Shown here piece after piece: positions 16,014 to 38,149 of a stretch of DNA of 64,000 bases. The stretch is from assembly GCA_965227295.1 (NCBI GenBank), contig OZ245742.1:1280001-1344000 (forward strand), in the 5' to 3' direction. The stretch is from Leptonemataceae bacterium (GTDB lineage: Bacteria > Spirochaetota > Leptospiria > Leptospirales > Leptonemataceae). Each line of letters opens with the position of its first letter. Position 1 is the stretch's first letter. The notes beneath the pieces are model-generated. The model saw only the letters and a list, made by a program, of their open reading frames with translations, was not told where the DNA came from and searched no databases. Position numbers and translations under genes: made by a program.

Positions 16014-16024
16014 AGATTTTTTAG

Positions 16025-18049: not shown

Positions 18050-18104
18050 ACGGATTTTTAGTTTCGCACTTTACAAATCTCCAGTATGTTCTATTCTCTG
18101 GATT

Positions 18105-18389: not shown

Positions 18390-18449
18390 GTCTTGAATGA
18401 TTTCTCGCCCTGTGCACAGTTGGAGAGGATGGTTTGATGGGACGGTCCT

Positions 18450-19736: not shown

Positions 19737-19956
19737 GAGTCCTCCCTTTCACAGCTTCTTTGATAAAATGCCCTGTGATCGCGTCCAGGCTGCCCAGGTG
19801 CTTTCCCCTTTTGTTAAAGGCTTCTATTTCTCCGTGCTGAGAATCCCACGTAAAATAACGATCATGGCGGGGGGAGCGCCAGACCTTCCGCCCCTCTCGA
19901 ATGCCGAAATACTCGCAGTTCGTAAAAAGAAAGCAATTATCCGGCGGTACGCGCAA
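19726..19956 (-). CDS. Stand-alone colicin E3-like cytotoxic ribonuclease domain
   Basis: RKVW...YFTWDSQHGEIEAFNKRGKHLGSLDAITG matches the colicin E3 C-terminal IYEWDSQHGELEGY...GQHLGSFDPKTG, keeping the Asp/His/Glu residues; TTG start, in-frame stop upstream at 20008-20010. Confidence 0.8.
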   Translation of the reverse strand: MRVPPDNCFLFTNCEYFGIREGRKVWRSPRHDRYFTWDSQHGEIEAFNKRGKHLGSLDAITGHFIKEAVKGRTLDV

Positions 19957-20148
19957 AATAGACCAGAGTCCCCGGGGTACAAGCGTATTTTTTGACCCCT
20001 TGTACCATCACCGCGACATATTTTCTCAAAAAGTGACGGGCGGATGAATTGTACCAGTGCTTTTTTGAATTTTTCTCAAACTCCCGCGCCCCTCGTACCA
20101 CCATGGAAAAACAATTGCCGCAAAGCCCGCCCCGGGATTCCGGAGCAT

Positions 20149-22772: not shown

Positions 22773-23720
22773 TTAATCGATGCGTAAGATCTGATTGCCG
22801 GCACTTACGTAGAGGTCGTCGTCGACGGGGACCAGTCCGGCGGCGTTCGTAATCGTGGTGGAAAAGGGAAAGAACACAAAGCCGCGCCGTCCACCGAGAG
22901 ACATACGATACAGGTTGTTTACGCCGGCCGCATATACTCTTACGCCGTCGGTGGTGAGATGAGTCAACGTATCCTCGCTTACTTCAATGTCCGGGTCCGT
23001 GTCACGGTAGGCCTCGTCCAGGGCGTAGGCCCGCAATCGGCTGCCGCCCTCGTAAATCCAGAACAGGGCGTTGCCGTTCGTCGTCAGGTCCACGCCGTTG
23101 TGGATGCCCGACACCAGCAACTCGGCCGAACCTCCGTCCCGGGGGACGGTCACGACGCGGTCCGCTTCAAGGACAAAGATGCGATCGAGATCCAGCGCGA
23201 CAGCCCGGACGTCGGTGAAACCCGAGGCGAGTTCGATGATGTTGCCCGTAAGCACATCCACCCGGACCAGGGTCTGGTTGGAAAGCAGAGCATACACGTA
23301 TTGACTGCTGCTCGTGATGCTGAGGGGGGTGGCTGCAAACGTGGCGACGGATACGACCTGAGACGTGCGAATGTCCGCGCGACGAAGCCGCAGGTTGTCC
23401 TGGTCGGCGATGTAAAGACCGTTGCAGTCCGTGCTGATGTCACCCGGATGGCCGAAGCTGGCGGCTGTCGCAATGCCGTCCAGGTTGCCCGCCATGCTGC
23501 TGCCGACGAAGACCGACGCCGCCGGTTGCAGCCGAATCGCTTGCATTTCCTGGCCGTTGATTAGATTGCAGGTGATGGAATCGAGGTAGACGGCGTAGCC
23601 GCCCAGAAAGAGCAGAGCGTTGACCTCGTCATCGCTGCTCGCCTGGCTCCGGCAGGAGCCGATGAGGCTCAGGCAAACGAGCAACGTGAGTCGCATAAGG
23701 CCGTTGATTCTGCGGTTCAT
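22773..23720 (-). CDS. Putative lipoprotein, NHL/beta-propeller-like
   Basis: Lipobox LIGSC; G.LDG..TAASF.HPGDI, repeated LTT(N/D)G...Y blades. Confidence 0.6.
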   Translation of the reverse strand: MNRRINGLMRLTLLVCLSLIGSCRSQASSDDEVNALLFLGGYAVYLDSITCNLINGQEMQAIRLQPAASVFVGSSMAGNLDGIATAASFGHPGDISTDCNGLYIADQDNLRLRRADIRTSQVVSVATFAATPLSITSSSQYVYALLSNQTLVRVDVLTGNIIELASGFTDVRAVALDLDRIFVLEADRVVTVPRDGGSAELLVSGIHNGVDLTTNGNALFWIYEGGSRLRAYALDEAYRDTDPDIEVSEDTLTHLTTDGVRVYAAGVNNLYRMSLGGRRGFVFFPFSTTITNAAGLVPVDDDLYVSAGNQILRID

Positions 23721-23745
23721 AAAGCGTCCTCAATAAGATTACGTA

Positions 23746-25452
23746 GTGCAATCGGATGGCAATGAAAAAAAACCGGCGCCGGATTCCCGCGTGAATCTGG
23801 CGCACACTGTATTGAGAGATGCGCTCGATGCAAAAGGTTTCGCCGAATTTACCGTTCGGGGCGAAAGCATGTATCCGTTGCTTCGTCCCGGGATGACGAT
23901 CCGCGTTGTTCGCTGTGCGGAGAAAGATCTGCGCGTGGGAGACATCATCATCTTCCGCAGCCGCGACGATCTTCTGGCACATCGAATCGTCGCAAAGCAT
24001 GGCTCCTCCCTCTGGATCGCAAAAGGGGATAATACCTTCATTTCGGACGACCCCGTCGCTTTCGAGGAGATCCTCGGCCGGGTCATCGCCGTCGCCGGGG
24101 AGGAGTACATCTACGGTTCTCGCGACGTGATGCTTGCGCGGCTCTCGCACCGTCAGGGTCGCATCGTTTCCGAACTGCGTTCTCGCAGCGAACGCCGACG
24201 ATCGTCGACCGGCCGGCGCGTGAAACGCGAGAACGTCCTGGCCTGGCCGCTGCGCCTGGCGTTGCGTCCGTATCTGTGGTTGGTGCGTCTCATCGCGGCC
24301 GGACATCCGAACCGCGACGGCGGGCGCCTGCCCATGGACGACACAGTCGACATACATCCGGGCACGCTGCAAATGGTTCGCCGTCGTGCCGCGGTCGCCG
24401 GCCGGCCCGCCACGGATTTGAGCTGGGTCGCCGTGGATCCGTTGATCGGTTTTCTGGGCGATGCGTTGCGAACTTCACCGCCGCGACCGGAACGCCTGGC
24501 GAAGTACATGCAGACCTGGAACGCCGCGGTGCGGGCGCTGCGTTGCCTGGCGGACGCAAACATTCAGACAATCATCTTTAAGGGCCTGGTCTTCGCGGAA
24601 GAACTCTACGACAGCCCGTTGCATCGTCCCATGCGTGATGTGGATTTGCTCGTGCGCCCGGACGACTTCGCGGCGGCGTGTCGCTGTTTGTCGGCCGCGG
24701 GTTTTATGATTCATGACGACTTTCCGGAGCGGCGCCCCCATGCGGTTTCGGACGCGGAAGTTTTCCCGGCGGATGCGTGGGCGCCGGGAGAGCTGACCTT
24801 CGTCGATGAGCGCGGAGTGGAGATCGATCTGCACTGGCATCTGATTCCGGAACACTGGCTACGCCCATGCCGTAACATACTTTTAGATGAAGTCTGGCGA
24901 GACGCTCGCCCCTTTCAATTCGAAGGCGGCAGTGTCTGGACCATGAGTGACGTACATACGGCCGCGTACCTGACGTTGAATCTGAGCCGCAACGCTTATC
25001 GTTCTTTATTCGCGTACCTGGATCTGGATCGATTGTGGCGCCGGCAGGGCCGTGACTTCGCGCAAGAGTTCTTCGATACGTGTCGGCGCTGGCGCATTCG
25101 CATCGCCGCGGATTATGCCCTTCGTTACTTGAAGTATTTGTGCGACACTCCGGTACAGATTTCGCGGCGACTGCGCCTGCGTCCGGGTCTGCCGCGGCCG
25201 GTTCGTCTCTTAAAAGATTCGCGACGCTGGCGCAGTGACGGTTACATGTACTTCGTGCAACTGGCGACACTGGACCGGCTGCGCGACGCCCTGGGCGTCA
25301 TCGTGCGGTTGGTTCTTCCTCCGCGCGGTTGGTTGCGACGACGCTACGGTGAGCGGGCTTCGTTCGTCCATCACTGGAGGCACGTCTTTCGTGCTTTGAC
25401 GGAACGGCGGACGAACTCAGGGAATGCGGACGGAACCGATGGGACTCGTTGA
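23746..25452 (+). CDS. Fusion: S24/S26-family peptidase + nucleotidyltransferase (NTP_transf_5-like)
   Basis: N-terminal VRGESMYPLL.PG...GDIIIF...HRIV...KGDN; C-terminal FKGL...LY..P..RPMRDVDLLV and IDLHW. Confidence 0.82.
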   Translation: MQSDGNEKKPAPDSRVNLAHTVLRDALDAKGFAEFTVRGESMYPLLRPGMTIRVVRCAEKDLRVGDIIIFRSRDDLLAHRIVAKHGSSLWIAKGDNTFISDDPVAFEEILGRVIAVAGEEYIYGSRDVMLARLSHRQGRIVSELRSRSERRRSSTGRRVKRENVLAWPLRLALRPYLWLVRLIAAGHPNRDGGRLPMDDTVDIHPGTLQMVRRRAAVAGRPATDLSWVAVDPLIGFLGDALRTSPPRPERLAKYMQTWNAAVRALRCLADANIQTIIFKGLVFAEELYDSPLHRPMRDVDLLVRPDDFAAACRCLSAAGFMIHDDFPERRPHAVSDAEVFPADAWAPGELTFVDERGVEIDLHWHLIPEHWLRPCRNILLDEVWRDARPFQFEGGSVWTMSDVHTAAYLTLNLSRNAYRSLFAYLDLDRLWRRQGRDFAQEFFDTCRRWRIRIAADYALRYLKYLCDTPVQISRRLRLRPGLPRPVRLLKDSRRWRSDGYMYFVQLATLDRLRDALGVIVRLVLPPRGWLRRRYGERASFVHHWRHVFRALTERRTNSGNADGTDGTR

Positions 25453-25902
25453 ACAGGAGTCGGCCGCGTCCGTGTCTGTCGGGCAGGCTTCGTAGAGTTT
25501 CAGGGTGCCCCCGTGTTCCGCGAGCATGCCGGCGGAAACCGTAATCAGAATGGTGTGTCGATCGCCGGCGGCCACTTCCAGTTCCAGCGGCTGGGCGTAC
25601 TCTTCGTCTCCTCGCGGGTTTTGTAAGAGCAGGGGCGCGGGCCGGTCGTCGATCCAGGCGCGGATTTCTTTCAGTAAAATGATTTCATGAAAGCGCCCCG
25701 GGTTCTCCACTTCTATGCGTCCGACTTCCACGGCCGCCGATCGATCCGGCGGCACGGTCACCGCCTGGCGAAACAAGAATCGGGCGCGCGCCCGTCCGTC
25801 GTCTAATGTTGTACCAAAGAATATTAACGCAACAAAGAATGCCGTGATTCCGGCGCTCCAGAGAAGAGCCATTGTAGTCACGGAAGCACGGATGGTACTC
25901 AT
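25417..25902 (-). CDS. Hypothetical membrane-anchored protein
   Basis: ATG 25902 overlaps methyltransferase TGA (ATGA); N-terminal TM helix. Confidence 0.55.
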   Translation of the reverse strand: MSTIRASVTTMALLWSAGITAFFVALIFFGTTLDDGRARARFLFRQAVTVPPDRSAAVEVGRIEVENPGRFHEIILLKEIRAWIDDRPAPLLLQNPRGDEEYAQPLELEVAAGDRHTILITVSAGMLAEHGGTLKLYEACPTDTDAADSCSTSPIGSVRIP

Positions 25903-26735
25903 GATGCCGCGCCTGTCAGGGCGAAGTGCACCTGCTCGACGGCCGGGGCGAGGGCGCCCTCTTCGACGTCGACAATGTGCAGGCCGGCCGCGGCGAACTC
26001 GGCTTCGACTTCCGCGCGGTTCCGGAAGTAGTGAATGAACTCCACTCGAAAATGATCGCCGGACTGCACGGCCGTGTTGCCGAAGCTCAGGCAAGCGAGC
26101 GCCTTTTTCCACGCCATGAAGCGCCGACCGATCCCCGGGCCGATGTAGGCCGAGAGCACGATCACGCCGGATTCTCGTAACATTCGTTTACACTTTCTTA
26201 AGAGGTCCTCCCGGTGGCGTCGCCCGGGTATGCACGAGTACATGCCCGGAGAAATGATGACAACGTCGTAGAGCGGGGCGTCGGCATCATCCGGAAAGGC
26301 CGCGATGTTTTTGTCGAAAGGAACGACGCCGCGTTCGAAGTGAGCGCGGTCACCGAAACTCTGCGTATTTTGCCGCGCGCTTTCGAGGATGGCCGGGATG
26401 CCCTCGACGCCGGTGACGTGAAAGCCATGGTCGAGGAGCACCAGGGCCTCCCGGCCGCCGCCGCAAAAAAGGTCCAGGGCTTGCGGCGGCGCGGACTTGC
26501 TCCGGCCCCGGGCAATGGGAAAGACCCGGCGTTCGTACATAAGCCGTTCGCCCTCGGAAAGAAAACCGCTCCGATTCATGGCCGGCCCCTGCCAGACCGC
26601 GGCATGGCCGCTGTAGAGTCCGGCGCTGAACCGGGAGAGCCGGTCCGGTGGTAGAATGCAGAGCGTGGTCACGTCGACGGCGTTGCGGACGACGGTGGCG
26701 ATCTTGCGTAGAATGCGTACCAGAAGAATCTTCAT
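25899..26735 (-). CDS. Class I SAM-dependent methyltransferase
   Basis: Motif I LDLFCGGGREA, VTGVE, YDVVI, MLRESGVIVL. Confidence 0.82.
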   Translation of the reverse strand: MKILLVRILRKIATVVRNAVDVTTLCILPPDRLSRFSAGLYSGHAAVWQGPAMNRSGFLSEGERLMYERRVFPIARGRSKSAPPQALDLFCGGGREALVLLDHGFHVTGVEGIPAILESARQNTQSFGDRAHFERGVVPFDKNIAAFPDDADAPLYDVVIISPGMYSCIPGRRHREDLLRKCKRMLRESGVIVLSAYIGPGIGRRFMAWKKALACLSFGNTAVQSGDHFRVEFIHYFRNRAEVEAEFAAAGLHIVDVEEGALAPAVEQVHFALTGAAS

Positions 26736-26759
26736 AGAATTCGATGAGTGCGTTCGTTT

Positions 26760-28967
26760 TCAAAACGGCCGCACGAAACCTTTCTCCCGCAGCCGGAACG
26801 GATCGAGCCGTTCCGCGTTCTTTTTATGATTCGTGACAGCGTCCGCCGACAGGCCGATCTCCGCGCCGATTTGCGCGAGGCGTGCGTGACAGTGCGCTGC
26901 CGTAACTTTCCAGGAACTACAGTTACGAAAAAGTTCCGCCGCCGCGTGTAAATCCTGTTCCGCGGCCGGACTTGCGACGGCAAGGTGGCGGGCCCGGAGC
27001 AAATGGCTTTCGCCGGCCAGGTTTTCCAGTTCGGCGTCCGCAGGATACAACGTGCGCGCCCACCGGAGCCACGGCAACGCCGAATCCACGGCGGCCGCAA
27101 CCGCCGCGGGGTCTCCGGAACTTTCGGGATTCCGGGGTTTGAGTACCCACACGAGCCAGGCGTTCTTATGTCGATACGGCTCCAGTGCCTCCAGTGCCTG
27201 CTCGCGCGCAAAGACCGCGAAGCCATGATACGTGACACCGACGCAGAGGATGAGTGCGGCCACGGCCGGCCAGGTATTTCGGGGCGCAGGCGACGGCATT
27301 GGATCCGCATCCTGTTTCGATGAAGGCAATGCCAGAAGGACGGCTAACGCTACGAGCACCATGGCCGCATAGAACGGCTGAATGAAATGATAGTTCATAA
27401 GACCCTGGAGCAGAAACGAAACGAGGGCCGTGCCCGCGGCGAGGGCCAGTGTGCCTGGCAGGCCCGGGACGAATAGACTGCGCCGGGCCGACTCGATCGC
27501 GTAGGCCGTGAGAAAGAGGATCAGAGCGGCGAAGGGGATGCCTGCATCGAGGCACAGTTGCAGGAGCAGGTTGTGTGCGTGCAGTCCGGCTCCCTGCATA
27601 CGGTAGTCGTGGGCAAGATGATAGAAGCCCGCGCCGCGGAGATCCGGTATCGGCATCGCGGCCAGCACGGAGTAGTGATTCGCGCCCGTGCCGAACAACG
27701 GTACTTCGGCGATTGCATTCAGGGCCAGTGTCCATAAAGCGAATCGCTGGCGTAATGTCGTAAACAAAAAGAAGTCCGGGTCCGTGCTGCGATCTTTCAT
27801 GAACCACAACCAGACCACAACGCCGGCCATCAGCGCGAGAACGCCCGCACCCACGAAAACGATGCGCCGATGGGAACGGGCGGAATCCGGCTTAGATTCT
27901 TCTGAGTGTAATCTTACAAATGCGAGGGCGAACAGAAAAACCGCGATCGCCATTCCGCTGAGGTACGCGAAGCGCGCGGCCGTTGTTATGAGTAAAAAGC
28001 CCAGAACCGGGACGATCCCCAGGGCGACGCCCATGCCGATCCGGTGCGCAAACTTTTCGGTTTGCGGGCCGTGCTTCGAAAAGAGTGATCGCAAGATTGC
28101 CGGCACGGCAACGAGCAGGGGCAGCAGGAAAACCAGCCAGCCGCCGGCATCGTTGGAGTTGACGCCGCCCAGGCTGTCCTTCTTGGCAAAGAAAAGATCC
28201 ATTGTTGGAACGCTGCGAAAGAGATGCTGTGCGCCGACTGCGAGCCAGCCCAGGTTCAGCAAGCATACACCGATCCACACCAGCGCCGTGCCTGCCGCAT
28301 CTTCCCGGGCGCGGGCGTACGTAAATAAGAAGAGAAAGACGAGCACAATGCTCAGACCGACGGCCGGTATGCTCTGGTAGTAGTTGGGCGCTACCAGGCC
28401 GGCGATGACAAACCACAGCCAGGCCGAGCCCCCGGCAATCAAGAAGACCGGATGCCGCCGCCGCAAACTTTGTAGAACCTTTTGAAGATCGTCGGCGTAC
28501 TCTACGCCGAGGTACGCCGCGGCACAGACCAGCGGCAGGATGCCGCCGGGGTTCCAAACGTAGACCCACAAGAACGGAAACGATAAGAACCAGAGCAACG
28601 TCGCCAGAGCGACCATCCGCGGCGGAACCCCGCGCCAGATCGCGATTAACATTAGAAAAAAGTAAGCGTAGAACCAGAACCGGTGATAGAACCGCAGGCC
28701 CGTTATGCCGGTATCGATGTAAATCGACGCGGCCCGGACCGCCGTGACAAAAACCAACAGTGCGCCAAGACATGCGATAGCGGCGAATGCGTCTCGTCTG
28801 TTTTGATGAGATTGTTCGCCACCGAAGTAGCGTGCACCTGCCAGAGAGACGAGCAAGATCCCCAGGGTAGGCCACAGGAGTTCTCGTACAAAAGTGTACT
28901 GAACGCCCGCGGACAGGCCGCTGCAGAGCAACACGGCCAGAATCAATATCCGAAGGGCCCACATCAT
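26760..28967 (-). CDS. O-antigen ligase (Wzy_C)-like polytopic membrane protein
   Basis: Many TM helices; R..LW..AL..I...PLFGTG and HAHNLLLQL..DAG motifs; helical C-terminal tail. Confidence 0.78.
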   Translation of the reverse strand: MMWALRILILAVLLCSGLSAGVQYTFVRELLWPTLGILLVSLAGARYFGGEQSHQNRRDAFAAIACLGALLVFVTAVRAASIYIDTGITGLRFYHRFWFYAYFFLMLIAIWRGVPPRMVALATLLWFLSFPFLWVYVWNPGGILPLVCAAAYLGVEYADDLQKVLQSLRRRHPVFLIAGGSAWLWFVIAGLVAPNYYQSIPAVGLSIVLVFLFLFTYARAREDAAGTALVWIGVCLLNLGWLAVGAQHLFRSVPTMDLFFAKKDSLGGVNSNDAGGWLVFLLPLLVAVPAILRSLFSKHGPQTEKFAHRIGMGVALGIVPVLGFLLITTAARFAYLSGMAIAVFLFALAFVRLHSEESKPDSARSHRRIVFVGAGVLALMAGVVVWLWFMKDRSTDPDFFLFTTLRQRFALWTLALNAIAEVPLFGTGANHYSVLAAMPIPDLRGAGFYHLAHDYRMQGAGLHAHNLLLQLCLDAGIPFAALILFLTAYAIESARRSLFVPGLPGTLALAAGTALVSFLLQGLMNYHFIQPFYAAMVLVALAVLLALPSSKQDADPMPSPAPRNTWPAVAALILCVGVTYHGFAVFAREQALEALEPYRHKNAWLVWVLKPRNPESSGDPAAVAAAVDSALPWLRWARTLYPADAELENLAGESHLLRARHLAVASPAAEQDLHAAAELFRNCSSWKVTAAHCHARLAQIGAEIGLSADAVTNHKKNAERLDPFRLREKGFVRPF

Positions 28968-29031
28968 AAAAAAAACATAGTGATTTAATCAAACGGTGTG
29001 CGTAAATATGATTTATAGTTGACGTTCACTC

Positions 29032-29391
29032 ATGGCCGGTGTCACTTTCGCACTCATGACTGAAACACAGAATCGCCCTCCGGAAAGTCAGGGCATCGCC
29101 ATTACTGAGGAGACTCGATTTCAAGCGCACGAAGATCTTTCGTGGCGTGAAATCGAAGGACAAATGGTTTGCATGAACCTGAAGTCCGGCGAGTACTTTA
29201 CGTTCAACGGAGTCGGCCGGGAAATCTGGCAGGCTGTTGCGGACGAGCGCGGTAATACGCGGGACATCGTCGCGAAGATTGTAAGTGAGTATGCGGTCGA
29301 AGAAAGTGTTGCGCAAAAGGATAGTAAAGAATTCTTAAGAAACTTGCTGGAAGCCGGTTTGATTCGGCCTGTGGATAGTCAACAAAATTGA
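29032..29391 (+). CDS. PqqD family protein / RiPP recognition element (RRE)
   Basis: WREIEGQMV..NLKSGEYFTFNGVGREIW...IV.EYAVEE..A.KD..EFL..L.EAGLI, classic PqqD pattern; alternative start ATG 29056. Confidence 0.92.
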   Translation: MAGVTFALMTETQNRPPESQGIAITEETRFQAHEDLSWREIEGQMVCMNLKSGEYFTFNGVGREIWQAVADERGNTRDIVAKIVSEYAVEESVAQKDSKEFLRNLLEAGLIRPVDSQQN

Positions 29392-29432
29392 TGAATCGTT
29401 CATCGACGACAGTTTAACTTTCGAGGGTAACT

Positions 29433-29585
29433 ATGAAAAACGAAAAGAAAAAGTATGAGTCGCCGTCACTGGAAAGCCGGAATGGCGGTAAAGACTACGC
29501 CGCTCCGACGTTCGAGCGCCACAATCCGCTCAACGAAGTGTCGGCAACCTACTACTATACGTACTACTACTATTACTACTACTGA
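29433..29585 (+). CDS. Putative RiPP precursor peptide with poly-Tyr core (50 aa)
   Basis: Translated by hand: MKNEKKKYESPSLESRNGGKDYAAPTFERHNPLNEVSATYYYTYYYYYYY*; GAGGG RBS at 29423-29427; lies between PqqD and kinase; YxxPxL motif; below ORF-track length cutoff. Confidence 0.85.
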   Translation: MKNEKKKYESPSLESRNGGKDYAAPTFERHNPLNEVSATYYYTYYYYYYY

Positions 29586-29594
29586 GAGAAAGCG

Positions 29595-30680
29595 GTGATC
29601 GGGTTACCGGGGCTTCCCATCGAAGTAGCCGGCCCGCCTTCTCCGGTGCGGGATGCAGTCGAAGCGGCTTTCGGCTTCTGCGCATTTCGAAATAGTAGCG
29701 ATACAAATCACATACGGCTGGAGGTTCGTTTTCTCGATAGCGAGTCCGAATCTCTGGCGGCCCGGGTTCCGGGATTCCTGAGCGCCCGCGTGGCGCTTCT
29801 GGAGCAGGAGCCTTCGCCCGTGTCCTCCGGTCTGGCTTACGTCAGTGAAGGGGGCAGCCGGCAGGGTTCCGGAACCGTCCTTGCAGATCCGCATTCCATA
29901 TGCGCGGCCTGGAGCGACTCCGCAGAGTCGCTGTCCTTATACGTCCGCAAGCGACGGCCAGAACCGGGCCTTTTGCCGTCCGTGCAAGCCCTGCTGATCC
30001 CCCTGCTGCGCGACCTTCTCCTTCGAAGAGATGCCTGTCTCCTTCATGCAGGCTCGGTCCGCACGCGGAACGATGAGGGATTGCTGGTCCTCGGAGATAA
30101 TGGAGCTGGAAAGACTACGGCCGTTCTGGCGCTGGCCCGGGCGGGAGGAGCCTTGCTTGCCGACGATCTGAACGTTTTGCGCAGGGCCGAGAGCGATGCT
30201 CGCCCATCGTTTGAAATCTGCGCGGTCCCGGAAGCGATCAATCTGACCGAGGACGAGAACACGGCGCGCTTTTTTCCGGAGCTGGCCGGTAGTCTGGGGC
30301 GAGCCCGGCCGGAGAACGATCGGCCGAAGGTAGCGGTTGCGCCCGATGAAGTCCTGCAACGACTCGGGGCGACGTCACGAACGGATCGTTGCTTCGCGAA
30401 CGGAGTTTTGATTCTGGATATCACGCCGGAGACTCCGTCCGCGTCGGAACGATTCGAAAGACTGCCGGCAGCACAGGTGTTGCCGTTGCTCCTGCGGGCC
30501 AACGTCTTCGCCGGTGGACAATCACCGGGAGCGGCCTTCGCAAATCTCGCGGAGTTTGTGGAAACCGTTCCGGGATACCGTGTGCGCACGGGGCCCGACC
30601 CGGCTGAAATGGCCCGGGAGATCTTGAACTACTTTGGGCATACACACGTAGCCGGGAGCATTCCCGGAGGGAGAGCATAA
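29595..30680 (+). CDS. HPr kinase-related (HprK-like) P-loop kinase
   Basis: LLHAGSV...LVLGDNGAGKTT...LLADD motif set. Confidence 0.8.
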   Translation: MIGLPGLPIEVAGPPSPVRDAVEAAFGFCAFRNSSDTNHIRLEVRFLDSESESLAARVPGFLSARVALLEQEPSPVSSGLAYVSEGGSRQGSGTVLADPHSICAAWSDSAESLSLYVRKRRPEPGLLPSVQALLIPLLRDLLLRRDACLLHAGSVRTRNDEGLLVLGDNGAGKTTAVLALARAGGALLADDLNVLRRAESDARPSFEICAVPEAINLTEDENTARFFPELAGSLGRARPENDRPKVAVAPDEVLQRLGATSRTDRCFANGVLILDITPETPSASERFERLPAAQVLPLLLRANVFAGGQSPGAAFANLAEFVETVPGYRVRTGPDPAEMAREILNYFGHTHVAGSIPGGRA

Positions 30681-32144
30681 ATGAACGCAAGCGCGGAGAA
30701 CACAGCACAGTCCTGGCCGCAAATGGAAGCCCTGCAGCGTCTCATGCGAGTCAGATCGCTGTTGCAAGACGGGCTGTCTTCGCTACCGGCCCTGATCGAC
30801 ATCCTGGCCGGCGACGATCCCACCGCGGCGGCCGAGGCGCACCAGGGTTTGATGGGCATGCTCCCGCTGGCATCCCTCTATGAACGGCGGCCCGAGGATT
30901 TTGTCGTCGCGGATGCGGACGAAATTCGCGCACCGATCCCGGATTGGCTGAAGGCGTCGTGTGATGGATGGGGGACCACGGAAGACTTCGCCTCTTTATG
31001 CGTGGAGCGTCTTGCGGAATTCCGCACCGGAGCACCGGAGCGTGCTCGCGTATTGCTGGAGCGCCTGGTAAACTTCTGGGGTATTCGGCGCCGGCTGGCC
31101 GAACTGCTCGAGGCGCGCGGTTTGAGCGATCTGCGCCGGACGTACGAAGAACTCATCGTCGAGACGGATGACATTCATTTTCCCGAGCAGATCTGCCTTT
31201 CGCCGACCCAGGCCTGTCAGCTCAAATGTTCGTTTTGTTACTCCGCGGATCTTCCTAATGTACACAAAGATGATATTAGCGACTCGAAGACACTTGAGCT
31301 GCTCGACTGGATGCATTCTAAGAACATTAAGCGTCTGAGTTTCGCCGGCGGCGAGCCCACATTGTTCCGCTACTTTCCGGCGCTCATTCGCAAAGCCGCC
31401 GAATACAAAATGGAAATCTTTCTTACGACGAACGGCCTCATGGCGCCGGCCGTCGTAGACGCGCTCATCGAAGTTCGACCGTTGTGCATCACCATGCATC
31501 TTACCGAAGAGGTTCTGGACGCACCGAAGCTCCTGGCACTCTTCGAACGCAACGCTCGGTCTTTCCTTGACCAGGGCATCTATACGATCATCCGGGCGAA
31601 CTTCATGGAGCCGGAGCAGGACCTGGAGCGCTACTTTCACACGGCGGAGAAACTGGGCATCAAAGAGATTCGTTGCGCCGTGCCCGTTCCCTCCGAACAA
31701 AGCGGTCACGATTACGTGCGCGAAGAGGACATGGACGCCATGGGGCGTTATCTCGGGGACTTCGTCGCCGGCGGGGCCCGGCGCGGTATCAAAACGGTAC
31801 TCAGTAAACCCTTTCCGGTCTGCAAACTTCCGGAGCACGCGGCGAAGGCCTTCCTGGCCAACGGCTCTCTCGGCGTGAATTGTCCGGTCCATCTTACGGA
31901 CTACTCGCACAACATCATGCTGTATCCGGACGGGAGTTTTTCGCCCTGCCTCGCTTTGAATATGAAGAGCGGCACGACCATCTACGATTATGACGGTGTC
32001 CGGGAGGCGGCCCAGGAGTACCGGTCGCGCATTGAGGACATGACCGAACAACCTATGTTTCCCGATCATTGTCCGAAGTGCCCGCTGTGGCAGGGCGCGC
32101 GCTGCGTGGGAGGATGTCTCGGCTATCGCGTCGCCGATTCCTGA
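30681..32144 (+). CDS. Radical SAM/SPASM-domain peptide maturase
   Basis: CQLKCSFC (CxxxCxxC), FAGGEPTL, TTNG; C-terminal NC...DGSFSPC...CPKC.....RCVGGC SPASM-type cysteines. Confidence 0.9.
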   Translation: MNASAENTAQSWPQMEALQRLMRVRSLLQDGLSSLPALIDILAGDDPTAAAEAHQGLMGMLPLASLYERRPEDFVVADADEIRAPIPDWLKASCDGWGTTEDFASLCVERLAEFRTGAPERARVLLERLVNFWGIRRRLAELLEARGLSDLRRTYEELIVETDDIHFPEQICLSPTQACQLKCSFCYSADLPNVHKDDISDSKTLELLDWMHSKNIKRLSFAGGEPTLFRYFPALIRKAAEYKMEIFLTTNGLMAPAVVDALIEVRPLCITMHLTEEVLDAPKLLALFERNARSFLDQGIYTIIRANFMEPEQDLERYFHTAEKLGIKEIRCAVPVPSEQSGHDYVREEDMDAMGRYLGDFVAGGARRGIKTVLSKPFPVCKLPEHAAKAFLANGSLGVNCPVHLTDYSHNIMLYPDGSFSPCLALNMKSGTTIYDYDGVREAAQEYRSRIEDMTEQPMFPDHCPKCPLWQGARCVGGCLGYRVADS

Positions 32145-32151
32145 TATCAGC

Positions 32152-33903
32152 ATGGCATCTTCCGATCCCCGGACAGGCGCCCGGATCGACCCGGCGGCGC
32201 GACGCGGTTTTGCGGCCTTTCTTGCGGCGTACCTGCGTCCGTTTCGTAAGCTTGCGCTCATCGTAACTTTCACATCGGTGCCGTTGTTCGGGCTGGCTTT
32301 TGTGATTCCGGTCTCCTTTAAGAACGCGACGGATTTTTTCCGACAGGCGGACGCGCTGTACTCCGTGGCCTTCTGGATGGCCGTGGGGTTGGGCGCGCTC
32401 GTGCTTAAGGCAATCTTCGACGTTATTAACGCCTACGGCCTTACCGTTCTGCACGCGAGCCTGGCCCGGGACATCCGCGCCGATCTCTACGCGCGTTTAC
32501 AGGCGGCCTCGTTCGACGTACACATTCGCAGTCGCAGCGGGGAGGTGGCGAACCTGTTGAGCAACGACGTGCAGCACGCCGCCATGGGTGCGTTACAAAT
32601 CTACTTCACGGCGTTTTATTATCCGCTGTTGATCGCGGTGCTTTCGGCTGTGATGTTGTACTTCAGCCCGCAGTTGTTTTTGCTGTCGCTGCTTTCGTTT
32701 CCTATCATCAGCCTGGCTGTTTCGTTCACCGCGCGGCGAGCGCATCATGCCGAGCGGCAGTTTCTCGATCGTCACGCGCGGGTGATGGGCATGTTGATCG
32801 AATCCCTCGTGAACGTGAAGCAGATCAAGGCCCTGGGTATCGAAGATCGCGGCCGGGCGAACCTCCGGGCCGTCGACGAAGAACTCCTGGGCTATCGCAA
32901 ACGCGCGCAGTTCATGGAAAGCCTCGCCGGGCCCATCACCGAAGTAACGAACGGTGTCATGCTCACGCTCATGGTCCTCGTGGCGTACTATCTTGTTGCA
33001 AACAATCAGGCCGACTACGGCGAAATCATCGGTTGCCTGGTGGCCGCGGTGCAACTGCGCGCACCGGTGCGCGCTTTCGCCGTGCAATGGATGGACATGC
33101 AAAAATCCCGCGCGGCCGTGCGACGCATTGAATGGATCGTGGGAGTACCGGCCGAAGGCGGGCAAAGCGACGCAGCGGAGTCGGAGCCCATGCAGGTAAA
33201 CTCGGTACAATTCGAGAACGTCTCGTTCTCGTACGACGGGAAACACGAAATTCTGCGCGGCCTCGATTTTACATTACGCCGCGGCGAACGTGTGGCCGTG
33301 CGCGGTCCGAGCGGCAGCGGCAAGACGACGTTCGTGGATCTGCTGGTGGGATTCTATCCACCGGCCGCGGGACGCATCCTCGTAAACAATCAGAATCTAT
33401 CGGCGTTGCGGCCGGATCACTGGCGGCGCAACATCGGCATTGTAACCCAGGAGCCCTTGTTGTTCGAAGGCAGCATCGAGGAAAACGTACGCATCGCCGA
33501 TCCCGACGCGGAGTCGGAACGCATCGAACGCGCCATGCACCTGGCCGGCATGTCGGCTATGCTTGCGGCCTTGCCGGAGGGCGGCGCGACCCAGGTCGGC
33601 GAGCGCGGCAAACGACTCTCCGGAGGTGAACGCAAACGTGTAGCCCTGGCGCGTGCCCTGGTGCGGCCGATCTCGCTGCTCGTTCTCGATGAGGCTACCA
33701 GCGAACTCGACGCCGACATCGAAGAGAGCATTCTGGAATCCATCGACCAACTCGCCGCCGATCTTCTGATCGTACACGTTTCACATCGCGACGCAATCCT
33801 CCGGCATTGTGATCGCGTGCTGGACTTCAAGCCGGGGGCGCCGGTTTGCGAAGTCCCATTGTCGGAAATACAGCCGCGCCCGCGCCGGGAGGTGCTCACG
33901 TGA
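32152..33903 (+). CDS. ABC exporter (fused TMD-NBD), no C39 peptidase domain
   Basis: TM domain then GPSGSGKTT, LSGGERKR, LVLDEATS, VSHR. Confidence 0.92.
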   Translation: MASSDPRTGARIDPAARRGFAAFLAAYLRPFRKLALIVTFTSVPLFGLAFVIPVSFKNATDFFRQADALYSVAFWMAVGLGALVLKAIFDVINAYGLTVLHASLARDIRADLYARLQAASFDVHIRSRSGEVANLLSNDVQHAAMGALQIYFTAFYYPLLIAVLSAVMLYFSPQLFLLSLLSFPIISLAVSFTARRAHHAERQFLDRHARVMGMLIESLVNVKQIKALGIEDRGRANLRAVDEELLGYRKRAQFMESLAGPITEVTNGVMLTLMVLVAYYLVANNQADYGEIIGCLVAAVQLRAPVRAFAVQWMDMQKSRAAVRRIEWIVGVPAEGGQSDAAESEPMQVNSVQFENVSFSYDGKHEILRGLDFTLRRGERVAVRGPSGSGKTTFVDLLVGFYPPAAGRILVNNQNLSALRPDHWRRNIGIVTQEPLLFEGSIEENVRIADPDAESERIERAMHLAGMSAMLAALPEGGATQVGERGKRLSGGERKRVALARALVRPISLLVLDEATSELDADIEESILESIDQLAADLLIVHVSHRDAILRHCDRVLDFKPGAPVCEVPLSEIQPRPRREVLT

Positions 33904-36047
33904 ATACCGTAGTAGAACCCTTAGATCGTACTTATCTTGAGTTAAGCGCCGAACCGCAGGCCTGGCCGCGTTCCCGGGAGGACGGCCGCACGCGGTTGTT
34001 GTTGCTTGCGCTCAACGTGCCGGGTTACTATTCTCTGCCCGTGCGTTTGCTGGCCCTGCAAACCGAGAACGACGCCGAACTGCGTGCGCGCTACGACGTG
34101 CGTTACTTCGAGGCCTTCCTCGACAATTCCATCGAAGATCACCTCGCCCTCCTGGAGGCCTGGCAGCCGGATCTGCTTGCCTGTTCGGTGAACATCTGGA
34201 ATCGCGACGCGTTGTTGGATCTGTGCGGTCGGTATCGTGTATCGAATCCGAATGTTCGTGTGATCGGCGGCGGGCAGGAGGTCTCGAACTCGTGTTACAA
34301 TTTCCTCGAAAGCCATGTGGAGTTCGACTACATCGTGGACGGCGAGGGTGAAATTCCCTTCCGCGAATTTTTGAACGAGTGGGAGCCGGGAGAACTCCGG
34401 CTGCGGAATCCCGCGGCGGTCTCGGGCCTGCACTACCGAAACGGAAGTGAGGTCGCCTTTACGTGTCCCGGTCGGACCATCGACGACCTGGATGAGATCG
34501 TTTCGACGAACCTGGCGAGTCTGGCCCCGGTGGGTGACGACAAACTGAAGATGGGTGTACTCTTAGAAGGAACCCGGGCCTGTCCGTTTCGCTGCGCGTT
34601 CTGTTTCGAGGGCGACAAACGAACGAAAACGCGCTTTTCCAGCACGGAACGCTTAACAGAAGAAGCGATGCACTTAATGGATCTGGGCGTAAAAAAGTTC
34701 CACATGCTGGATCCCATCATTTGCGCCAGCCGTCCGGAGCGGCTGGAGGGAATCGCCCGTCTTTTTGATCGCATCCAGAGCCGCGACCCGGAGGCCTTCA
34801 TATTCGTGGAAGCCTACGCCGATCTCATTACGCCGGAGGTGGCGGACTGTTTGCGAGTGTGCTCGGTCCTGGACCTGGGCTTGCAATCCGTCAATCCGCT
34901 GACCACGAAATCCATCCGCCGGCCGTTCAAGCGTGACCGGTGGCTGAACGGCGTCGAACTCTTGCGCGAACGCGGGATTCCGTTCAACGTGTACCTCATC
35001 TCCGGTTTGCCGCACGAAACCTTCGATACGTTCCTCGACGGAATTCAGTTCGTGCTGCACGAGAATCCCACGCGCATTTTTTTCAATGAGCTGTGTCTCT
35101 TGAACGGAACCGAACTGCGAATGCGCGCCGATGAATTCGGCTACGACTACGATCCCGCGCCCCCGTACTTTGTTTTCGGTAACACCTGGATGCCGCGCCC
35201 GGTGTTGCGCATGGCGCAGACGCTTTCTAAAATCGTCGAGCGCAATCACAACTACTCCGGCCCCGTTCTTTTTCCGTATCTGCCCTGGGTTTCCGAGGCG
35301 CCGCGTACCGAAACGCGCGAAGTCCTCGTGGATGCGGAACGAGCGCTGCATGACGGTGCTTATTTTCAGGAATGCGAAAACGACATTCGCGCCGGCGGCA
35401 CCGATGTGCACATCGATTGCGGTCTTGCTTTCGATTCTGCGCGTTTCGACGACTTACTGAACCTGTGCGGTCGTCTGCAATTCGCCGGAGCCGTACGCAT
35501 GAACCTGCGGGCCGCTCCGAATCTACTTACGGACATCGAAAAACTGACGGCGCTGATGAATCGTCTCGTGCTGCACTTTCGCATTCTCTACGACGCTTCC
35601 GGGCACGAAGCCGCGGACCTGCGTGCGGCCGTGGACGCTCTGGATCGCGAGTATCGACTCATGCGCGGGACGCACGCGCGACCGAACGTCGAAATTATTC
35701 TGATGCGTCCGCCGGTGGAGCGTTTGCCGGAGTTGATCCGAGATTGCGCGCGGCGGGTGTATTTGATTTCCATTTACGATCCGGACCAGGACGGCGAGAC
35801 CGGCGGCCTGGATGCAAATACGGCGCGGCAACTTTTTGAAGATGCCATGCAACGACAGGCCTGGCTGCGTCTGCCGCGCAAACACATGCGAGAAGTTCTG
35901 GTGGCGCTCGGACGCGAACTCGACGGCGAGCATGGTCTGGAAGATCGAGCCGATGCGATTACGGAAAAGCTCGCCGTTCTGGGCTTTGCCGGGAATCCGG
36001 TGGAGCAACGTTCGAATGTATCCGGAGCACCCGTTGCAAAGATTTAG
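33900..36047 (+). CDS. B12-binding domain radical SAM enzyme
   Basis: SVNIWN, IGGGQEVS, DGEGE, RACPFRCAFC, GLQS, GLPHET; GTG 33900 overlaps ABC stop (GTGA) with GGAGG RBS. Confidence 0.88.
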   Translation: MNTVVEPLDRTYLELSAEPQAWPRSREDGRTRLLLLALNVPGYYSLPVRLLALQTENDAELRARYDVRYFEAFLDNSIEDHLALLEAWQPDLLACSVNIWNRDALLDLCGRYRVSNPNVRVIGGGQEVSNSCYNFLESHVEFDYIVDGEGEIPFREFLNEWEPGELRLRNPAAVSGLHYRNGSEVAFTCPGRTIDDLDEIVSTNLASLAPVGDDKLKMGVLLEGTRACPFRCAFCFEGDKRTKTRFSSTERLTEEAMHLMDLGVKKFHMLDPIICASRPERLEGIARLFDRIQSRDPEAFIFVEAYADLITPEVADCLRVCSVLDLGLQSVNPLTTKSIRRPFKRDRWLNGVELLRERGIPFNVYLISGLPHETFDTFLDGIQFVLHENPTRIFFNELCLLNGTELRMRADEFGYDYDPAPPYFVFGNTWMPRPVLRMAQTLSKIVERNHNYSGPVLFPYLPWVSEAPRTETREVLVDAERALHDGAYFQECENDIRAGGTDVHIDCGLAFDSARFDDLLNLCGRLQFAGAVRMNLRAAPNLLTDIEKLTALMNRLVLHFRILYDASGHEAADLRAAVDALDREYRLMRGTHARPNVEIILMRPPVERLPELIRDCARRVYLISIYDPDQDGETGGLDANTARQLFEDAMQRQAWLRLPRKHMREVLVALGRELDGEHGLEDRADAITEKLAVLGFAGNPVEQRSNVSGAPVAKI

Positions 36048-36059
36048 AAGGTACTGTTC

Positions 36060-37550
36060 ATGAAAGCTACGTTTCTCGGCCATCAGGGGTGGATGCTGGA
36101 ATCCTCCGACGCGCGCTTGTTGATCGATCCGATCATCACTCCGTACTATCGCAACTCCGCGTATACGAAGATGTGGATGTATCCGCCGCGGGAGATCGAT
36201 CTCGCCGCGATGGGTTCGGTGGACGCGATCTATCTTTCGCATGAACACGAGGATCACTTTCACATCGAGTCGCTGCACCTCTTCAGTCGCGACACGAAGT
36301 TGTACGTGAGCGGTAACATTTCCGGTGCGGCCGTGCGCATTCTCGAAGAGATGGGCTTTCTCGTGCGCCGGCTCTACGCCCTGGAGCAGGTGGAGATCGG
36401 CGAGCACATGACTATGACCGTTTACCCGCCGCCGGCATCGCCCACGGAGCACTGGGTCCTCCAGCCGTTCGTTCTGGAAGATGAGGACTATCGCCGTTCG
36501 TTCTTCAATCCCGTGGACTGCCAGATCTCGGATCAGTTCATCGCCATGCTCGACAAAGAGCGCGTCGCTGAACTCGGACTGGTTTGTGTCGCGAACAATA
36601 CGCAGAACATTCCCGCGCTGGTGCATCCGAATCAATATCTTCCGGGGCGGCGCCGCACGGCCATGAACCTGCGCCCCGCCAACGTCCTGCACAGTCACCT
36701 GGAACTCGGCAACCTTCCGTTCATGCGAGAGATCGCCATCGTCGGTTGCGGATTTATTTCCGAAGACAATCCCTTCGGTCTTTATCTGAATCAGTCCCAG
36801 GCCGAACTCGGCGCGGTAATGGAAAAGTACAGCGTGGGCGCCGTCCGTATTTTCGGACCGCAGCCGGGAGAAGCGGTGGACCTTCGCGGCGACGGCGCAA
36901 CGCGCATTCCGGCACCGCAGGACGGTTTTGTGCGACCGTCGACGGAAGGCGAAGCAGTCCTGGCCTGGGCCGAACAAACCAACTACGTTCCTGATCCTTT
37001 CACGTACGAGTACGATCCGGTCTCGACGAAACTCCTGCACGCGGAAGAACAGGAGCGTCTCGGCGCCGCGCTGGATGCTTTCGCCATACGCATGGCCGGC
37101 CATCGTTTTCAAATCGAGATGACTCAGTCCAACCTGGACGATCACGGCAATCCGGTCGGGGCGGGGCGTCTGTTGTTGATCTTGATGTACGAAGATGGGA
37201 ACGGTGAACGGCGCAAGCTCTACTATGAGTATCGCCCTGCTGATACACGCTTCTACGCGCTGGAGAAACAGGGCATTACGGAATTCGATCTCGCCCATCG
37301 TTACCCCTTCGGTTACGAATGCTGGGCGAAGGATCTGCTCGGATTGCTCGAAGGCGATGTTACCGTGTATGAGATCATCAACTTCAGGAACCGCTTCTGG
37401 CATCCGCAGCGACACATGGTGGAACGCGCGCACTTCCCGCTCGTGTTAAACGATTTGTTTGCGCCGGAGTGCATACCGGAGCTGACATATCAGATCTATC
37501 GCCGTGCGTACGACCGGGCGCGCGCGTCATCGGAAGCGCGTCCGGTTTAA
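36060..37550 (+). CDS. Metallo-beta-lactamase-fold enzyme
   Basis: TFLGHQG...LLIDP, SHEHEDHFH (HxHxDH); last gene of the rSAM operon. Confidence 0.82.
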   Translation: MKATFLGHQGWMLESSDARLLIDPIITPYYRNSAYTKMWMYPPREIDLAAMGSVDAIYLSHEHEDHFHIESLHLFSRDTKLYVSGNISGAAVRILEEMGFLVRRLYALEQVEIGEHMTMTVYPPPASPTEHWVLQPFVLEDEDYRRSFFNPVDCQISDQFIAMLDKERVAELGLVCVANNTQNIPALVHPNQYLPGRRRTAMNLRPANVLHSHLELGNLPFMREIAIVGCGFISEDNPFGLYLNQSQAELGAVMEKYSVGAVRIFGPQPGEAVDLRGDGATRIPAPQDGFVRPSTEGEAVLAWAEQTNYVPDPFTYEYDPVSTKLLHAEEQERLGAALDAFAIRMAGHRFQIEMTQSNLDDHGNPVGAGRLLLILMYEDGNGERRKLYYEYRPADTRFYALEKQGITEFDLAHRYPFGYECWAKDLLGLLEGDVTVYEIINFRNRFWHPQRHMVERAHFPLVLNDLFAPECIPELTYQIYRRAYDRARASSEARPV

Positions 37551-38149
37551 TCATCGGACTCCGTTTTCGTGGGCCGGCCTTCGATGCGCGCAAGAATTCC
37601 CTGGCCTTGCTGAATGACTGCATCGATGCGGGTGCGCCGGTATCCGCGAATCGCGGCCTGGTGTAAATAACGTTCCGCAAGATCGCGTCGGCCGGCCAGT
37701 TCCGCCAACACCGCCAGGTTGTAAAACGGCAACGGGTAGAGCGGATCGATGGCGAGCGCCGCTTCGAAGTCGGAGCGCGCTTCGTCCAGGCGACCCAATT
37801 GCAGCCGCGCCGTTCCCAGATTATACAACGCCATCGCTTCCACGTCCGGCGTGTAGATACTGAACGCCAGCCAGAGATACTTTTTCAAGTGCGGCTTCTC
37901 GCGAATCATGTCGAGAAATCGTCGCGAATGCTCCAGCGATTCTTCGAATTGTTCCAGATCGTATGACCTCCGCCCGCGAAACAAATCGCGAAAGAGCATG
38001 CCCTGCACCCGCCCGGGAATCAGTACGATCAGTCCGAGAGTTATGACGACGTAGATCGAAGGGTACAGCAGATAGATTCCCACCACACAGCCGAGACCTG
38101 CGGCGAGCAACGCGACGTAAGCGATCTTATAGCGCAAAGTACGATTCAT
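37547..38149 (-). CDS. Membrane-anchored tetratricopeptide repeat protein
   Basis: Two N-terminal TMs; ALYNLG...LG.LDEA..DFEAALAIDP.Y..PFYNLA. Confidence 0.75.
   Translation of the reverse strand: MNRTLRYKIAYVALLAAGLGCVVGIYLLYPSIYVVITLGLIVLIPGRVQGMLFRDLFRGRRSYDLEQFEESLEHSRRFLDMIREKPHLKKYLWLAFSIYTPDVEAMALYNLGTARLQLGRLDEARSDFEAALAIDPLYPLPFYNLAVLAELAGRRDLAERYLHQAAIRGYRRTRIDAVIQQGQGILARIEGRPTKTESDD

Follow-up and report, generated by a model that had tools for sequence, protein, structure and literature searches.

A tyrosine-run peptide cluster of a Leptonemataceae genome apparently represents an undescribed RiPP family close to the linear polyphosphorylated peptides

Linear polyphosphorylated peptides (LPPs) belong to the peptides that are ribosomally synthesized and modified post-translationally (RiPPs), and were described by Popov et al. 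(2026, PMC13381572). LPPs are reported from Bacillota only and share a core of a signal peptidase I of archaeal type (SpI), which marks the class, a discrete RiPP recognition element (RRE), an HprK-like kinase, a nucleoside triphosphate (NTP) transferase plus an MsbA-like exporter; their leader reads YxxPxVLxHQxIxFETxxS, with cleavage after Thr and polyphosphorylation of Ser3. Counterparts of all five core genes, that of SpI matching its family model just under the cut-off, were also found, likewise with glycan-related neighbours and no lasso cyclase, in the DNA studied here, a stretch of 64,000 nucleotides from a Leptonemataceae bacterium (assembly GCA_965227295.1, contig OZ245742.1; hereafter, the window), where they accompany a precursor peptide ending in a run of tyrosines and radical S-adenosylmethionine (rSAM) enzymes. 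We consider it highly probable that this locus and its relatives constitute a poly-Tyr RiPP system. The cluster apparently represents an undescribed RiPP family, its new parts being the poly-Tyr core and the subfamily of its B12-dependent rSAM enzyme (B12-rSAM). As to the mechanism as a whole, the product is fairly likely to be a linear, phosphorylated and sugar-capped peptide with radically cross-linked and/or C-methylated tyrosines, built on a chassis of LPP or phospho-lasso type to which radical SAM enzymes have been added.

The precursor comprises 50 residues (MKNEKKKYESPSLESRNGGKDYAAPTFERHNPLNEVSATYYYTYYYYYYY), with a lasso-type leader carrying two YxxPx[LF] motifs and a core ending in TYYYTYYYYYYY. 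Ten Tyr were counted within its last 12 codons, compared to five in the next best of the 178,703 stop-ended frames of at least 12 codons in the whole genome. The Tyr codons are mixed (eight TAC and two TAT), and the run is thus no pure microsatellite. An origin as a microsatellite or assembly artefact was ruled out by the TAC/TAT mixture in all 15 precursor-like open reading frames (ORFs) listed, and is also contradicted by protein-level conservation with Trp/Phe substitutions and by a contig of run X1, possibly the source of the window DNA itself, which spans positions 23600-37700 with 0 differences. No Pfam or NCBIfam family matched the precursor, and the ESM Atlas returned nothing at a level of at least 0.9. 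In total, 16 poly-Tyr precursors of the YxxP type were collected, the window's included (14 tabulated by computation, two read by eye), in addition to one Tyr-rich peptide with another leader (genome G661). The family consensus of the leader is YxxPx[FLMV]xxHxx[LI], with His at +9 in 13 out of 16 precursors and Leu, Ile or Val at +12 in all of them, while Asp, Glu and Cys are absent after +16 from every core. The Tyr count of the tabulated precursors varies from 5 to 12; those of the smallest relatives, which have six genes, are only 28-29 residues long, and the precursors of G253 and G408 are identical. Two tandem YxxP motifs were seen in three precursors of the window's own family (window 29433-29585, L037:4758-4916, and L019:12-167), and a single motif in the other 11 tabulated ones.

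An earlier note on this DNA had proposed a new RiPP cluster with a heavily modified Tyr-rich product and had made the proposal depend on the co-occurrence of its genes in other genomes. RRE, precursor, HprK-like kinase, PF14907 nucleotidyltransferase, B12-rSAM and at least one rSAM enzyme with a SPASM domain were found together in 13 out of 13 loci of at least 15 kb (window, G018, G156, G158, L004, L006, L010, G348, G408, G253, G715, G932, and G1062). The profiles used for these gene counts were partly built from the same loci, so that their scores are circular there; homology to the window genes was taken from separate comparisons. Relatives of the cluster were found in two further genera of the window's family, in other families of its phylum, and in genomes labelled as Desulfobacterales and Nitrospirae, and the source names of the B12-rSAM subfamily include Syntrophotaleaceae, Nitrospirota, Thermodesulfovibrionales, Planctomycetota, Desulfobacter, Desulfamplus, a Methanoperedenaceae archaeon, and Leptospiraceae, the taxonomy of the relatives resting on names given by the source databases. 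With regard to the earlier view that such a product would be unusual in a spirochaete, most loci derive from Desulfobacterales-type and unnamed metagenome contigs and the family is not special to spirochaetes.

Scans for the rSAM/SPASM enzyme of the window (rSAM1) yielded three genome and ten metagenome loci, of which two gave weak partial matches, four were too short, and the other seven all carry a poly-Tyr ORF. In a sample of 401 genomes from the phylum of G158, rSAM1 was present in four (G158, G348, G408, and G253), which are also the four with the full-length B12 enzyme. The window's own phylum (401 genomes) gave three positives (the window's genome, G715, and G661) and the order of G158 (266 genomes) gave four (G157, G158, G932, and G1062); G932 and G1062, found via the B12 enzyme alone, both hold an RRE and a poly-Tyr precursor. 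Within the window's order (156 genomes), rSAM1 was found only in the window's own genome, the B12 enzyme in four genomes, and the metallo-beta-lactamase-fold (MBL) enzyme in three. None of these three enzymes was detected in two other genomes of the same genus, the flanks of which are non-syntenic, so that no insertion boundary could be drawn, and none of 72,556 plasmid records matched over 80% of the query.

The closest solved sequences to the RRE, which is present in all 13 large loci, are the lasso-type RREs TbiB1, 9x90, and TfuB1. A model of the RRE in complex with the precursor scored 0.59 (best control, 0.03), with three runs sharing at least 75% of contacts and a partner pLDDT (per-residue model confidence) of at least 51; the mark applied is reached by 116 out of 157 solved and 2 out of 215 mismatched pairs, 18 solved pairs and both mismatches lying at or below 0.60, and similar complexes have already been solved. 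The model thus lends weak support to binding of the window precursor. In the G018 cluster two RRE genes were seen, in the window one.

The kinase matches its family model weakly (Table 1). However weak that match, His151, the motif GxxGxGKT (G170-x-G172-K173-x-T175), and D190-D191 are invariant in 11 out of 11 aligned homologues and correspond to the residue types required by BsfK. Kinase and PF14907 nucleotidyltransferase occur in all 13 large loci, L004 and G932 having the kinase solely as a fusion of the two. Such kinase-PF14907 fusion genes, which come on top of a stand-alone nucleotidyltransferase, were observed at L003:18391-20523, L004:12450-14555, L092:1-2106, and L095:5658-7796, which suggests that the two activities may be coupled. 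In the window, PF14907 (NTP_transf_5; 3.1e-35, with the DxD motif RPMRDVD at residue 294) is instead fused to an S26 peptidase domain, for which TIGR02228 gave 47.5 bits (cut-off, 51.85) and fell just under the threshold in G018 too. Ser41, His79, and KGDN..D are common to the window fusion, in which no transmembrane (TM) segment was predicted, and its G018 homologue, and in G018 the two functions are encoded by separate adjacent genes. The fusion protein is a candidate leader peptidase and phosphate-capping enzyme.

The first radical SAM enzyme, rSAM1, carries CxxxCxxC at residues 179-186 and seven SPASM cysteines. In its predicted model (mean pLDDT 82), the N-terminal 165 residues form a domain made of helices alone, which does not show an RRE fold and gave no Pfam match and no usable ESM Atlas match. 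SuiB was the best fold match, followed by BlsE, SkfB, DesII, the sactipeptide maturase 5why, viperins, ChlB (rank 12), and TigE, the top matches being mostly peptide maturases (SuiB, SkfB, 5why, ChlB, and TigE). No curated family came near its cut-off, the best match (E 7e-13) being to generic models. Triceptides are made by rSAM/SPASM enzymes of the GrrM, XyeB, FxsB, YhhB, and AmcB families acting on aromatic-x-x motifs, and models of these families were absent among the best 25 of 50 rSAM1 matches. Besides rSAM1 itself, the 7,999 candidates scored contained nine homologues, and E-values go from <1e-98 for about 20 representatives to 7e-77 for the next. A second rSAM/SPASM type of the related loci, rSAM2 (326 aa), is about 22% identical to rSAM1.

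The B12-rSAM belongs to a subfamily with 81 out of 86 matches at E<1e-77 and a subsequent drop to 2e-31. Its closest solved sequences are CysS (9.1e-38) and TokK (2.1e-35), both matching over the cobalamin and rSAM domains; both are B12-dependent C-methylases and described as iterative, CysS in the title of PMC12846815. The KedN5 C-methyltransferase model gave 122 bits, with a cut-off of 700. In the C-terminal third, a second CxxxCxxC motif is present in 27 out of 38 aligned members and absent from the window copy, the C-terminal domain of which is probably a degenerate second rSAM-like domain. G715 and G661 encode a separate gene after the B12 gene that weakly resembles the rSAM enzyme HxsC4 and shows weak profile similarity to this C-terminal domain (probability 30%, E 5.6e-4).

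Based on these findings, the short gene would be translated and its YxxPx[FLMV]xxHxx[LI] leader gripped by the RRE, a step well supported by conservation. By analogy with LppK, BsfK, and PsmN, the kinase would then phosphorylate a hydroxyl close to where leader and core meet (Thr39 or Ser37) or, as a bolder option, Tyr itself, and the PF14907 enzyme would cap the phosphate with a sugar or nucleotide. The rSAM/SPASM enzyme and the B12-rSAM would work along the Tyr run. For the former, Tyr-to-Tyr C-C or C-O cross-links are most likely, because the core lacks Cys and is almost all Tyr. For the B12 enzyme, several rounds of C-methylation on unactivated carbons (for example Tyr C-beta), as by CysS and TokK, are slightly favoured, whereas Tyr-Tyr aryl coupling of the PbsB kind is a possible though less probable reaction, and anything else seems improbable. 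In the window variant only, the MBL enzyme might act as a hydroxylase or trim a phosphoester, and the methyltransferase might cap either a phenol or the N-terminus. In the same variant, removal of the leader near Ser37 might fall to the SpI domain and export of the core to the ABC pump, and a Tyr hydroxyl may receive a glycan from the Wzy_C protein. A more far-reaching version appears rather unlikely: oxygen-independent radical chemistry would repeatedly convert the Tyr run into a stapled, methylated aromatic oligomer, the HprK-like protein would be a RiPP tyrosine kinase, the PF14907 enzyme would make a sugar- or nucleotide-capped diester from phospho-Tyr, the product would be tied to the surface, and the B12 enzyme would have two radical domains. 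If true, such an oligomer would be an anaerobic counterpart of oxidative dityrosine cross-linking, and the whole system would be both a new class of RiPP and a case of new rSAM chemistry.

Several observations weigh against the proposed mechanism. The expectation that the rSAM enzymes are of the peptide type was borne out by most of the top fold matches of rSAM1, but the non-peptide enzymes BlsE, DesII, and viperins also rank high. Since rSAM1 is present in 11 out of 13 large loci (absent in G018 and G1062) and rSAM2 in 12 (absent in the window), neither is essential individually. Moreover, several of the 13 loci are close kin and therefore represent about nine lineages, as judged by eye without a tree. 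With respect to phosphorylation, the position equivalent to Ser3 of the LPPs, in a register inferred from the leader, is occupied by Tyr (9), Thr (5), Ile (1), or Gly (1) and by Ser in none of the 16 precursors, and the G156 core has no Ser or Thr after +16. Ser-to-Tyr variants were reportedly left unphosphorylated by LppK (PMC13381572) and BsfK, and deletion of lppN caused no change (PMC13381572). Finally, neither export, proposed earlier, nor the S26 peptidase is general in the family: the exporter is missing from 3 out of 13 large stretches and SpI was found in only two (window and G018), a TIGR02228 search of G156, G158, and G253 giving no match.

Two other explanations appear improbable to about the same degree. 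The peptide could be sacrificed as a scaffold on which a small cofactor or metabolite is made from Tyr, several units being cut from each Tyr run. PqqD, an rSAM/SPASM enzyme, and an MBL-fold protein make up the PqqD/E/B kit, and mycofactocin biosynthesis uses a C-terminal Tyr; the resemblance to both, the presence of PqqE and PqqB among the fold matches, the variable Tyr count, and the three loci lacking an exporter would suit this scenario. However, PqqB ranks only 26th (Z 14.8) and PqqE is not the top match, the MBL gene occurs solely in the window, G017, and G018, and the conserved genes include no excising peptidase. In addition, leader and kinase/nucleotidyltransferase kit follow the LPP/lasso type, in which the products remain peptides, and an MsbA-like exporter is present in 10 out of 13 loci. 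Alternatively, a phospho-glycosylated poly-Tyr peptide could be a component of the cell envelope, acting as an anchor, primer, or cross-linker for surface polysaccharide. Such a role would agree with the Wzy_C genes of the window and G018, with DUF2079 membrane proteins that neighbour G018 and G932, and with genes within or next to related loci for GT4, GT2, GT9, a sulfotransferase, AsnB-type amidotransferases (4 out of 13 large loci), and Kdo/WaaP-type kinases (5 out of 13). It would also suit the LtaS-like sulfatase gene found upstream in the window and the reported location of LPP and paeninodin clusters in capsule loci. Yet no glycan-related gene is conserved family-wide, and none was found in the G348, G253, and G408 stretches; the envelope role would alter the destination of the product, not its core chemistry, and partly overlaps with the modified-peptide mechanism proposed above.

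It is very unlikely that the enzymes make a non-peptide metabolite, with a fosfomycin-type kinase, a nucleotidyltransferase, and a B12 methylase, the Tyr-rich ORF being either a bystander or an attenuator leader that senses tyrosine. Tandem codons for a single amino acid are typical of attenuator leaders, the kinase relatives match the FomB model weakly (E ~1e-3), and CysS and TokK act on non-ribosomal substrates; nevertheless, the ORF lies inside the operon directly behind the RRE with an RRE-binding leader kept across phyla, no terminator-like site behind it and no Rfam element were found, the next gene follows after 9 nt, and no tyrosine-pathway genes lie downstream. Least of all, with a likelihood close to nil, do we expect a lasso peptide whose cyclase and B2 protease are encoded elsewhere, a reading that could appeal to the lasso-type RRE and leader and to the AsnB-like genes of the related loci: the macrolactam of a lasso peptide is formed by an Asp or Glu located at core position 7-9, and neither occurs in any of the 16 cores, PF13471 (B2 protease) had no match in the 93.55% complete genome, the cluster contains no Asn_synthase (the nearest strong match of the genome being about 160 kb away), as noted earlier for the cyclase in this window, and the L006 enzyme scores 381 bits as a glutamine-hydrolysing asparagine synthase (cut-off, 267) and 219 as a lasso cyclase (cut-off, 525). 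The product would be linear rather than a lasso peptide.

The genes named in the earlier note, which gave no position for the precursor, are all open frames where it places them, comprising a plus-strand operon, divergent minus-strand genes, and a convergent peptidase-nucleotidyltransferase gene (Table 1). The tight packing described there was also recovered, the gaps from the precursor onward being 9, 0, and 7 nt, an overlap, and 12 nt.

Table 1. Features of the poly-Tyr cluster in the window.
Feature	Position	Strand	Evidence
S26 signal peptidase I (archaeal-type) + PF14907 nucleotidyltransferase fusion	23746..25452	+	TIGR02228, PF14907
Hypothetical membrane-anchored protein, 161 aa, one N-terminal TM segment	25417..25902	-	no family match
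Class I SAM-dependent methyltransferase	25899..26735	-	Methyltransf_25 4.4e-7
Wzy_C (O-antigen ligase / O-oligosaccharyltransferase-like) membrane protein	26760..28967	-	PF04932 1.9e-11
64-nt AT-rich spacer, 30% GC, between divergent operons	28968..29031	.	base composition
Discrete PqqD-type RRE	29032..29391	+	PF05402 1.5e-16
Precursor peptide, 50 aa	29433..29585	+	YxxPx[LF] motifs; homologous peptides in 15 other loci
HprK-like peptide kinase	29595..30680	+	TIGR04352 2.8e-5, invariant catalytic residues
Radical SAM/SPASM enzyme rSAM1	30681..32144	+	Radical_SAM 4.5e-13, cysteine motifs
MsbA-like ABC exporter without peptidase domain	32152..33903	+	PF00664 + PF00005
B12-dependent radical SAM enzyme	33900..36047	+	PF02310 + PF04055
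MBL-fold enzyme, HEHEDH	36060..37550	+	Lactamase_B_3

The B12-rSAM probably starts at GTG 33900 behind GGAGGT, giving a 4-nt overlap, and the hypothetical gene probably at ATG 25902 (161 aa) rather than at 26112. On the minus strand, Wzy_C gene, methyltransferase, and hypothetical gene follow each other starting 64 nt upstream of the RRE, the last overlapping the end of the fusion gene. The spacer is a probable promoter region; one weak minus-strand sigma-70-like site was found at 28992-28963, the region containing three such sites in total compared to a chance expectation of 5.3. RRE, precursor, kinase, fusion, methyltransferase, Wzy_C, and hypothetical gene each gave a single tblastn match in the 5.94 Mb genome, and the GC content of the cluster (59.4%) is close to that of the genome (59.8%).

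The cluster boundaries assumed previously hold, because one relative from another genus, G018, repeats the whole layout of the window. In G018, SpI and nucleotidyltransferase are adjacent and converge on AsnB, hypothetical gene, methyltransferase, and Wzy_C, and the divergent side comprises RRE, precursor, kinase, ABC, B12-rSAM, MBL, another RRE, and rSAM2. A 150-nt overlap at 99.3% joins contigs C291 and C144, and the link between C144 and C183 is based on a B12 gene split across the contig ends. A 6.8 kb contig of G017 carries precursor, kinase, ABC, B12-rSAM, and MBL. As G018 repeats the layout and G017 part of it, the accessory genes are assigned to a family-level variant of the cluster. 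MBL homologues with 48-50% identity lie directly behind the B12 gene in G017 and G018 (2 out of 13 large loci carry the gene), and HxHEDH is kept in 16 out of 16 aligned members. The MBL fold matches tie within 1 Z (17.6-18.1) between UlaG-like proteins, RNase J, NAPE-PLD, and the diiron hydroxylase CmlA (Z 17.6, root-mean-square deviation 4.4, 233 aligned residues). Orthologues of the ABC exporter in related loci are 34-45% identical. The methyltransferase has a 30% identical homologue at the same position in G018 and was not found in the other 11 large loci, and the Wzy_C protein, with about 14 hydrophobic segments in a crude hydropathy count, has a homologue at the same position in G018, the gene being present in 2 out of 13 large loci. 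WsfB, also a Wzy_C protein, is a predicted transferase in a Tyr O-glycosylating organism (PMC2943079). The 161-aa hypothetical protein matched no Pfam or NCBIfam family, the G018 gene at its position is not detectably similar (E 0.12), and its membership in the cluster is uncertain.

Outside the cluster, the LtaS-like membrane sulfatase-family gene (20044-22761, plus strand) lies 1 kb upstream, has three paralogues in the genome, and encodes a long C-terminal extension of no known family. A predicted lipoprotein gene (22773-23720, minus strand), with a signal ending in LIGSC by eye and a weak DUF6923 repeat match, is divergent from the fusion gene. Positions 14657-19415 (minus strand) encode FlgK and flagellin-like flagellar hook-associated proteins and an IrrE/M78 peptidase, and the GC minimum of the window (0.52) falls into the bin 18001-20000.

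Some of the related loci deviate in composition. G715 (L069:1153-13416) represents an expanded version with an RRE, a precursor ending in YYYSLYYTYYYYYYY, four rSAM genes and a related 260-aa gene, ABC, B12-rSAM, the separate rSAM-like domain gene, nucleotidyltransferase, and kinase. In G1062 (L093:13032-20000, L094:1-4048), the cluster is split between ABC and nucleotidyltransferase by two genes, one of them large, helicase-like and on the opposite strand, and an extra 233-aa P-loop kinase-like gene is present. G661 (L068:2982-9950) encodes a B12-rSAM, rSAM1-like, rSAM2-like, and DynA/anSME-like rSAM enzymes around a 68-aa peptide ending in TTYYYYTTYYY, the leader of which has a twin-arginine-type signal look by eye and no YxxP; with this other leader and no RRE, kinase, or nucleotidyltransferase in 11.6 kb, G661 was set aside from the family. 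G017, G157/L002, and L007 have a precursor and less than 15 kb of contiguous DNA around it, and were kept out of the 13 loci. L005, L008, L009, and L011 (contigs of 2.5-3.0 kb) were dropped for lack of DNA far enough upstream for a precursor, L012 and L013 for partial rSAM1 matches outside the subfamily (E 3e-9 and 2e-5), G022 for a 27% partial B12 match with no cluster genes within 16 kb, and 13 genomes because their matches to the B12 profile were confined to its generic N-terminal half.

A homopolymeric Tyr core is an unusual RiPP substrate. Apart from one or two Ser/Thr at the junction, Tyr is almost the only residue on which a mass shift could fall, which makes the enzymology easy to read. 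The cluster brings two uncharacterised radical SAM subfamilies, offers a test of HprK-like RiPP kinases on Tyr, which the two characterised ones refuse, and provides a handle on the function of the PF14907 enzymes LppN and PsmN. The six-gene relatives with their short precursors would suit heterologous work, and a full-length member of the B12 subfamily, P0253, belongs by its source name to Desulfamplus magnetovallimortis, presumably a cultured organism, and points to a possible cultured producer. Overall, the interpretation put forward in the earlier note is supported, with the type of modification inferred.

Compared to other described systems, the cluster combines familiar parts. Sactipeptides and ranthipeptides have Cys donors in their cores, and this assignment was ruled out by the Cys-free cores of all 16 precursors. 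CysS and TokK differ from the window B12-rSAM in their substrates, and the match to them omits its C-terminal third. The SynChlorMet cassette (TIGR04248-04251), which had been drawn on as a parallel together with paeninodin and pseudomycoidin, likewise comprises PqqD, an HprK-like protein, and paired rSAM/SPASM enzymes; it was rejected, as the Scm models stay far under their cut-offs (ScmD 20.9 versus 100 in the window; ScmC 18.1 versus 125 and ScmF 20.5 versus 400 in relatives), and it is not named in the literature searched. In the biphenomycin-like RiPPs (MNIO, arginase, and B12-rSAM with a FHAFRF-type motif; PMC12257519), the B12-rSAM PbsB cross-links both Tyr rings of a YTY peptide. A B12-rSAM acting on an aromatic core is the common feature, PbsB and the window enzyme being likened by description; leader and core of the window family are different, MNIO and arginase gave no Pfam match among the cluster genes, and the motif is absent from the precursors. 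The phospho-lasso systems (paeninodin, PsmK/PsmN, and BsfK; PMC6993621, PMC10368454) share the RRE, the YxxPxL leader, the kinase residue types, and a DxD nucleotidyltransferase, PsmN being required for the hexose on the phosphate (PMC6993621). In this respect the earlier parallel stands, although the window lacks cyclase, B2 protease, and ring-forming acid and has radical SAM enzymes, and although the LPPs are nearer.

No account of a poly-Tyr RiPP was met in the literature searched, which omits most subscription journals, and searches by term in the text of the RRE-Finder paper (PMC7470986) and of a B12-rSAM review (PMC12931638) returned nothing relevant. The main text of the LPP report (PMC13381572) contains no mention of radical SAM, the term heading one column of a supplementary domain matrix, and the strings YYYY, B12, and Leptospir- were absent from six supplementary files. 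The window-family leader keeps Y, P, in most precursors His at +9, and the aliphatic residue at +12 in register with YxxPxVLxHQxI, whereas the FET part is unmatched. Unlike the LPPs, the window family has a short poly-Tyr core free of Cys, Asp, and Glu, carries two radical SAM enzymes in the window where the LPP core has none, retains SpI in few of its loci, and occurs outside Bacillota. The LPPs are the closest known family, and the window cluster is LPP-like in recruitment and phosphate decoration, yet it is no LPP member.

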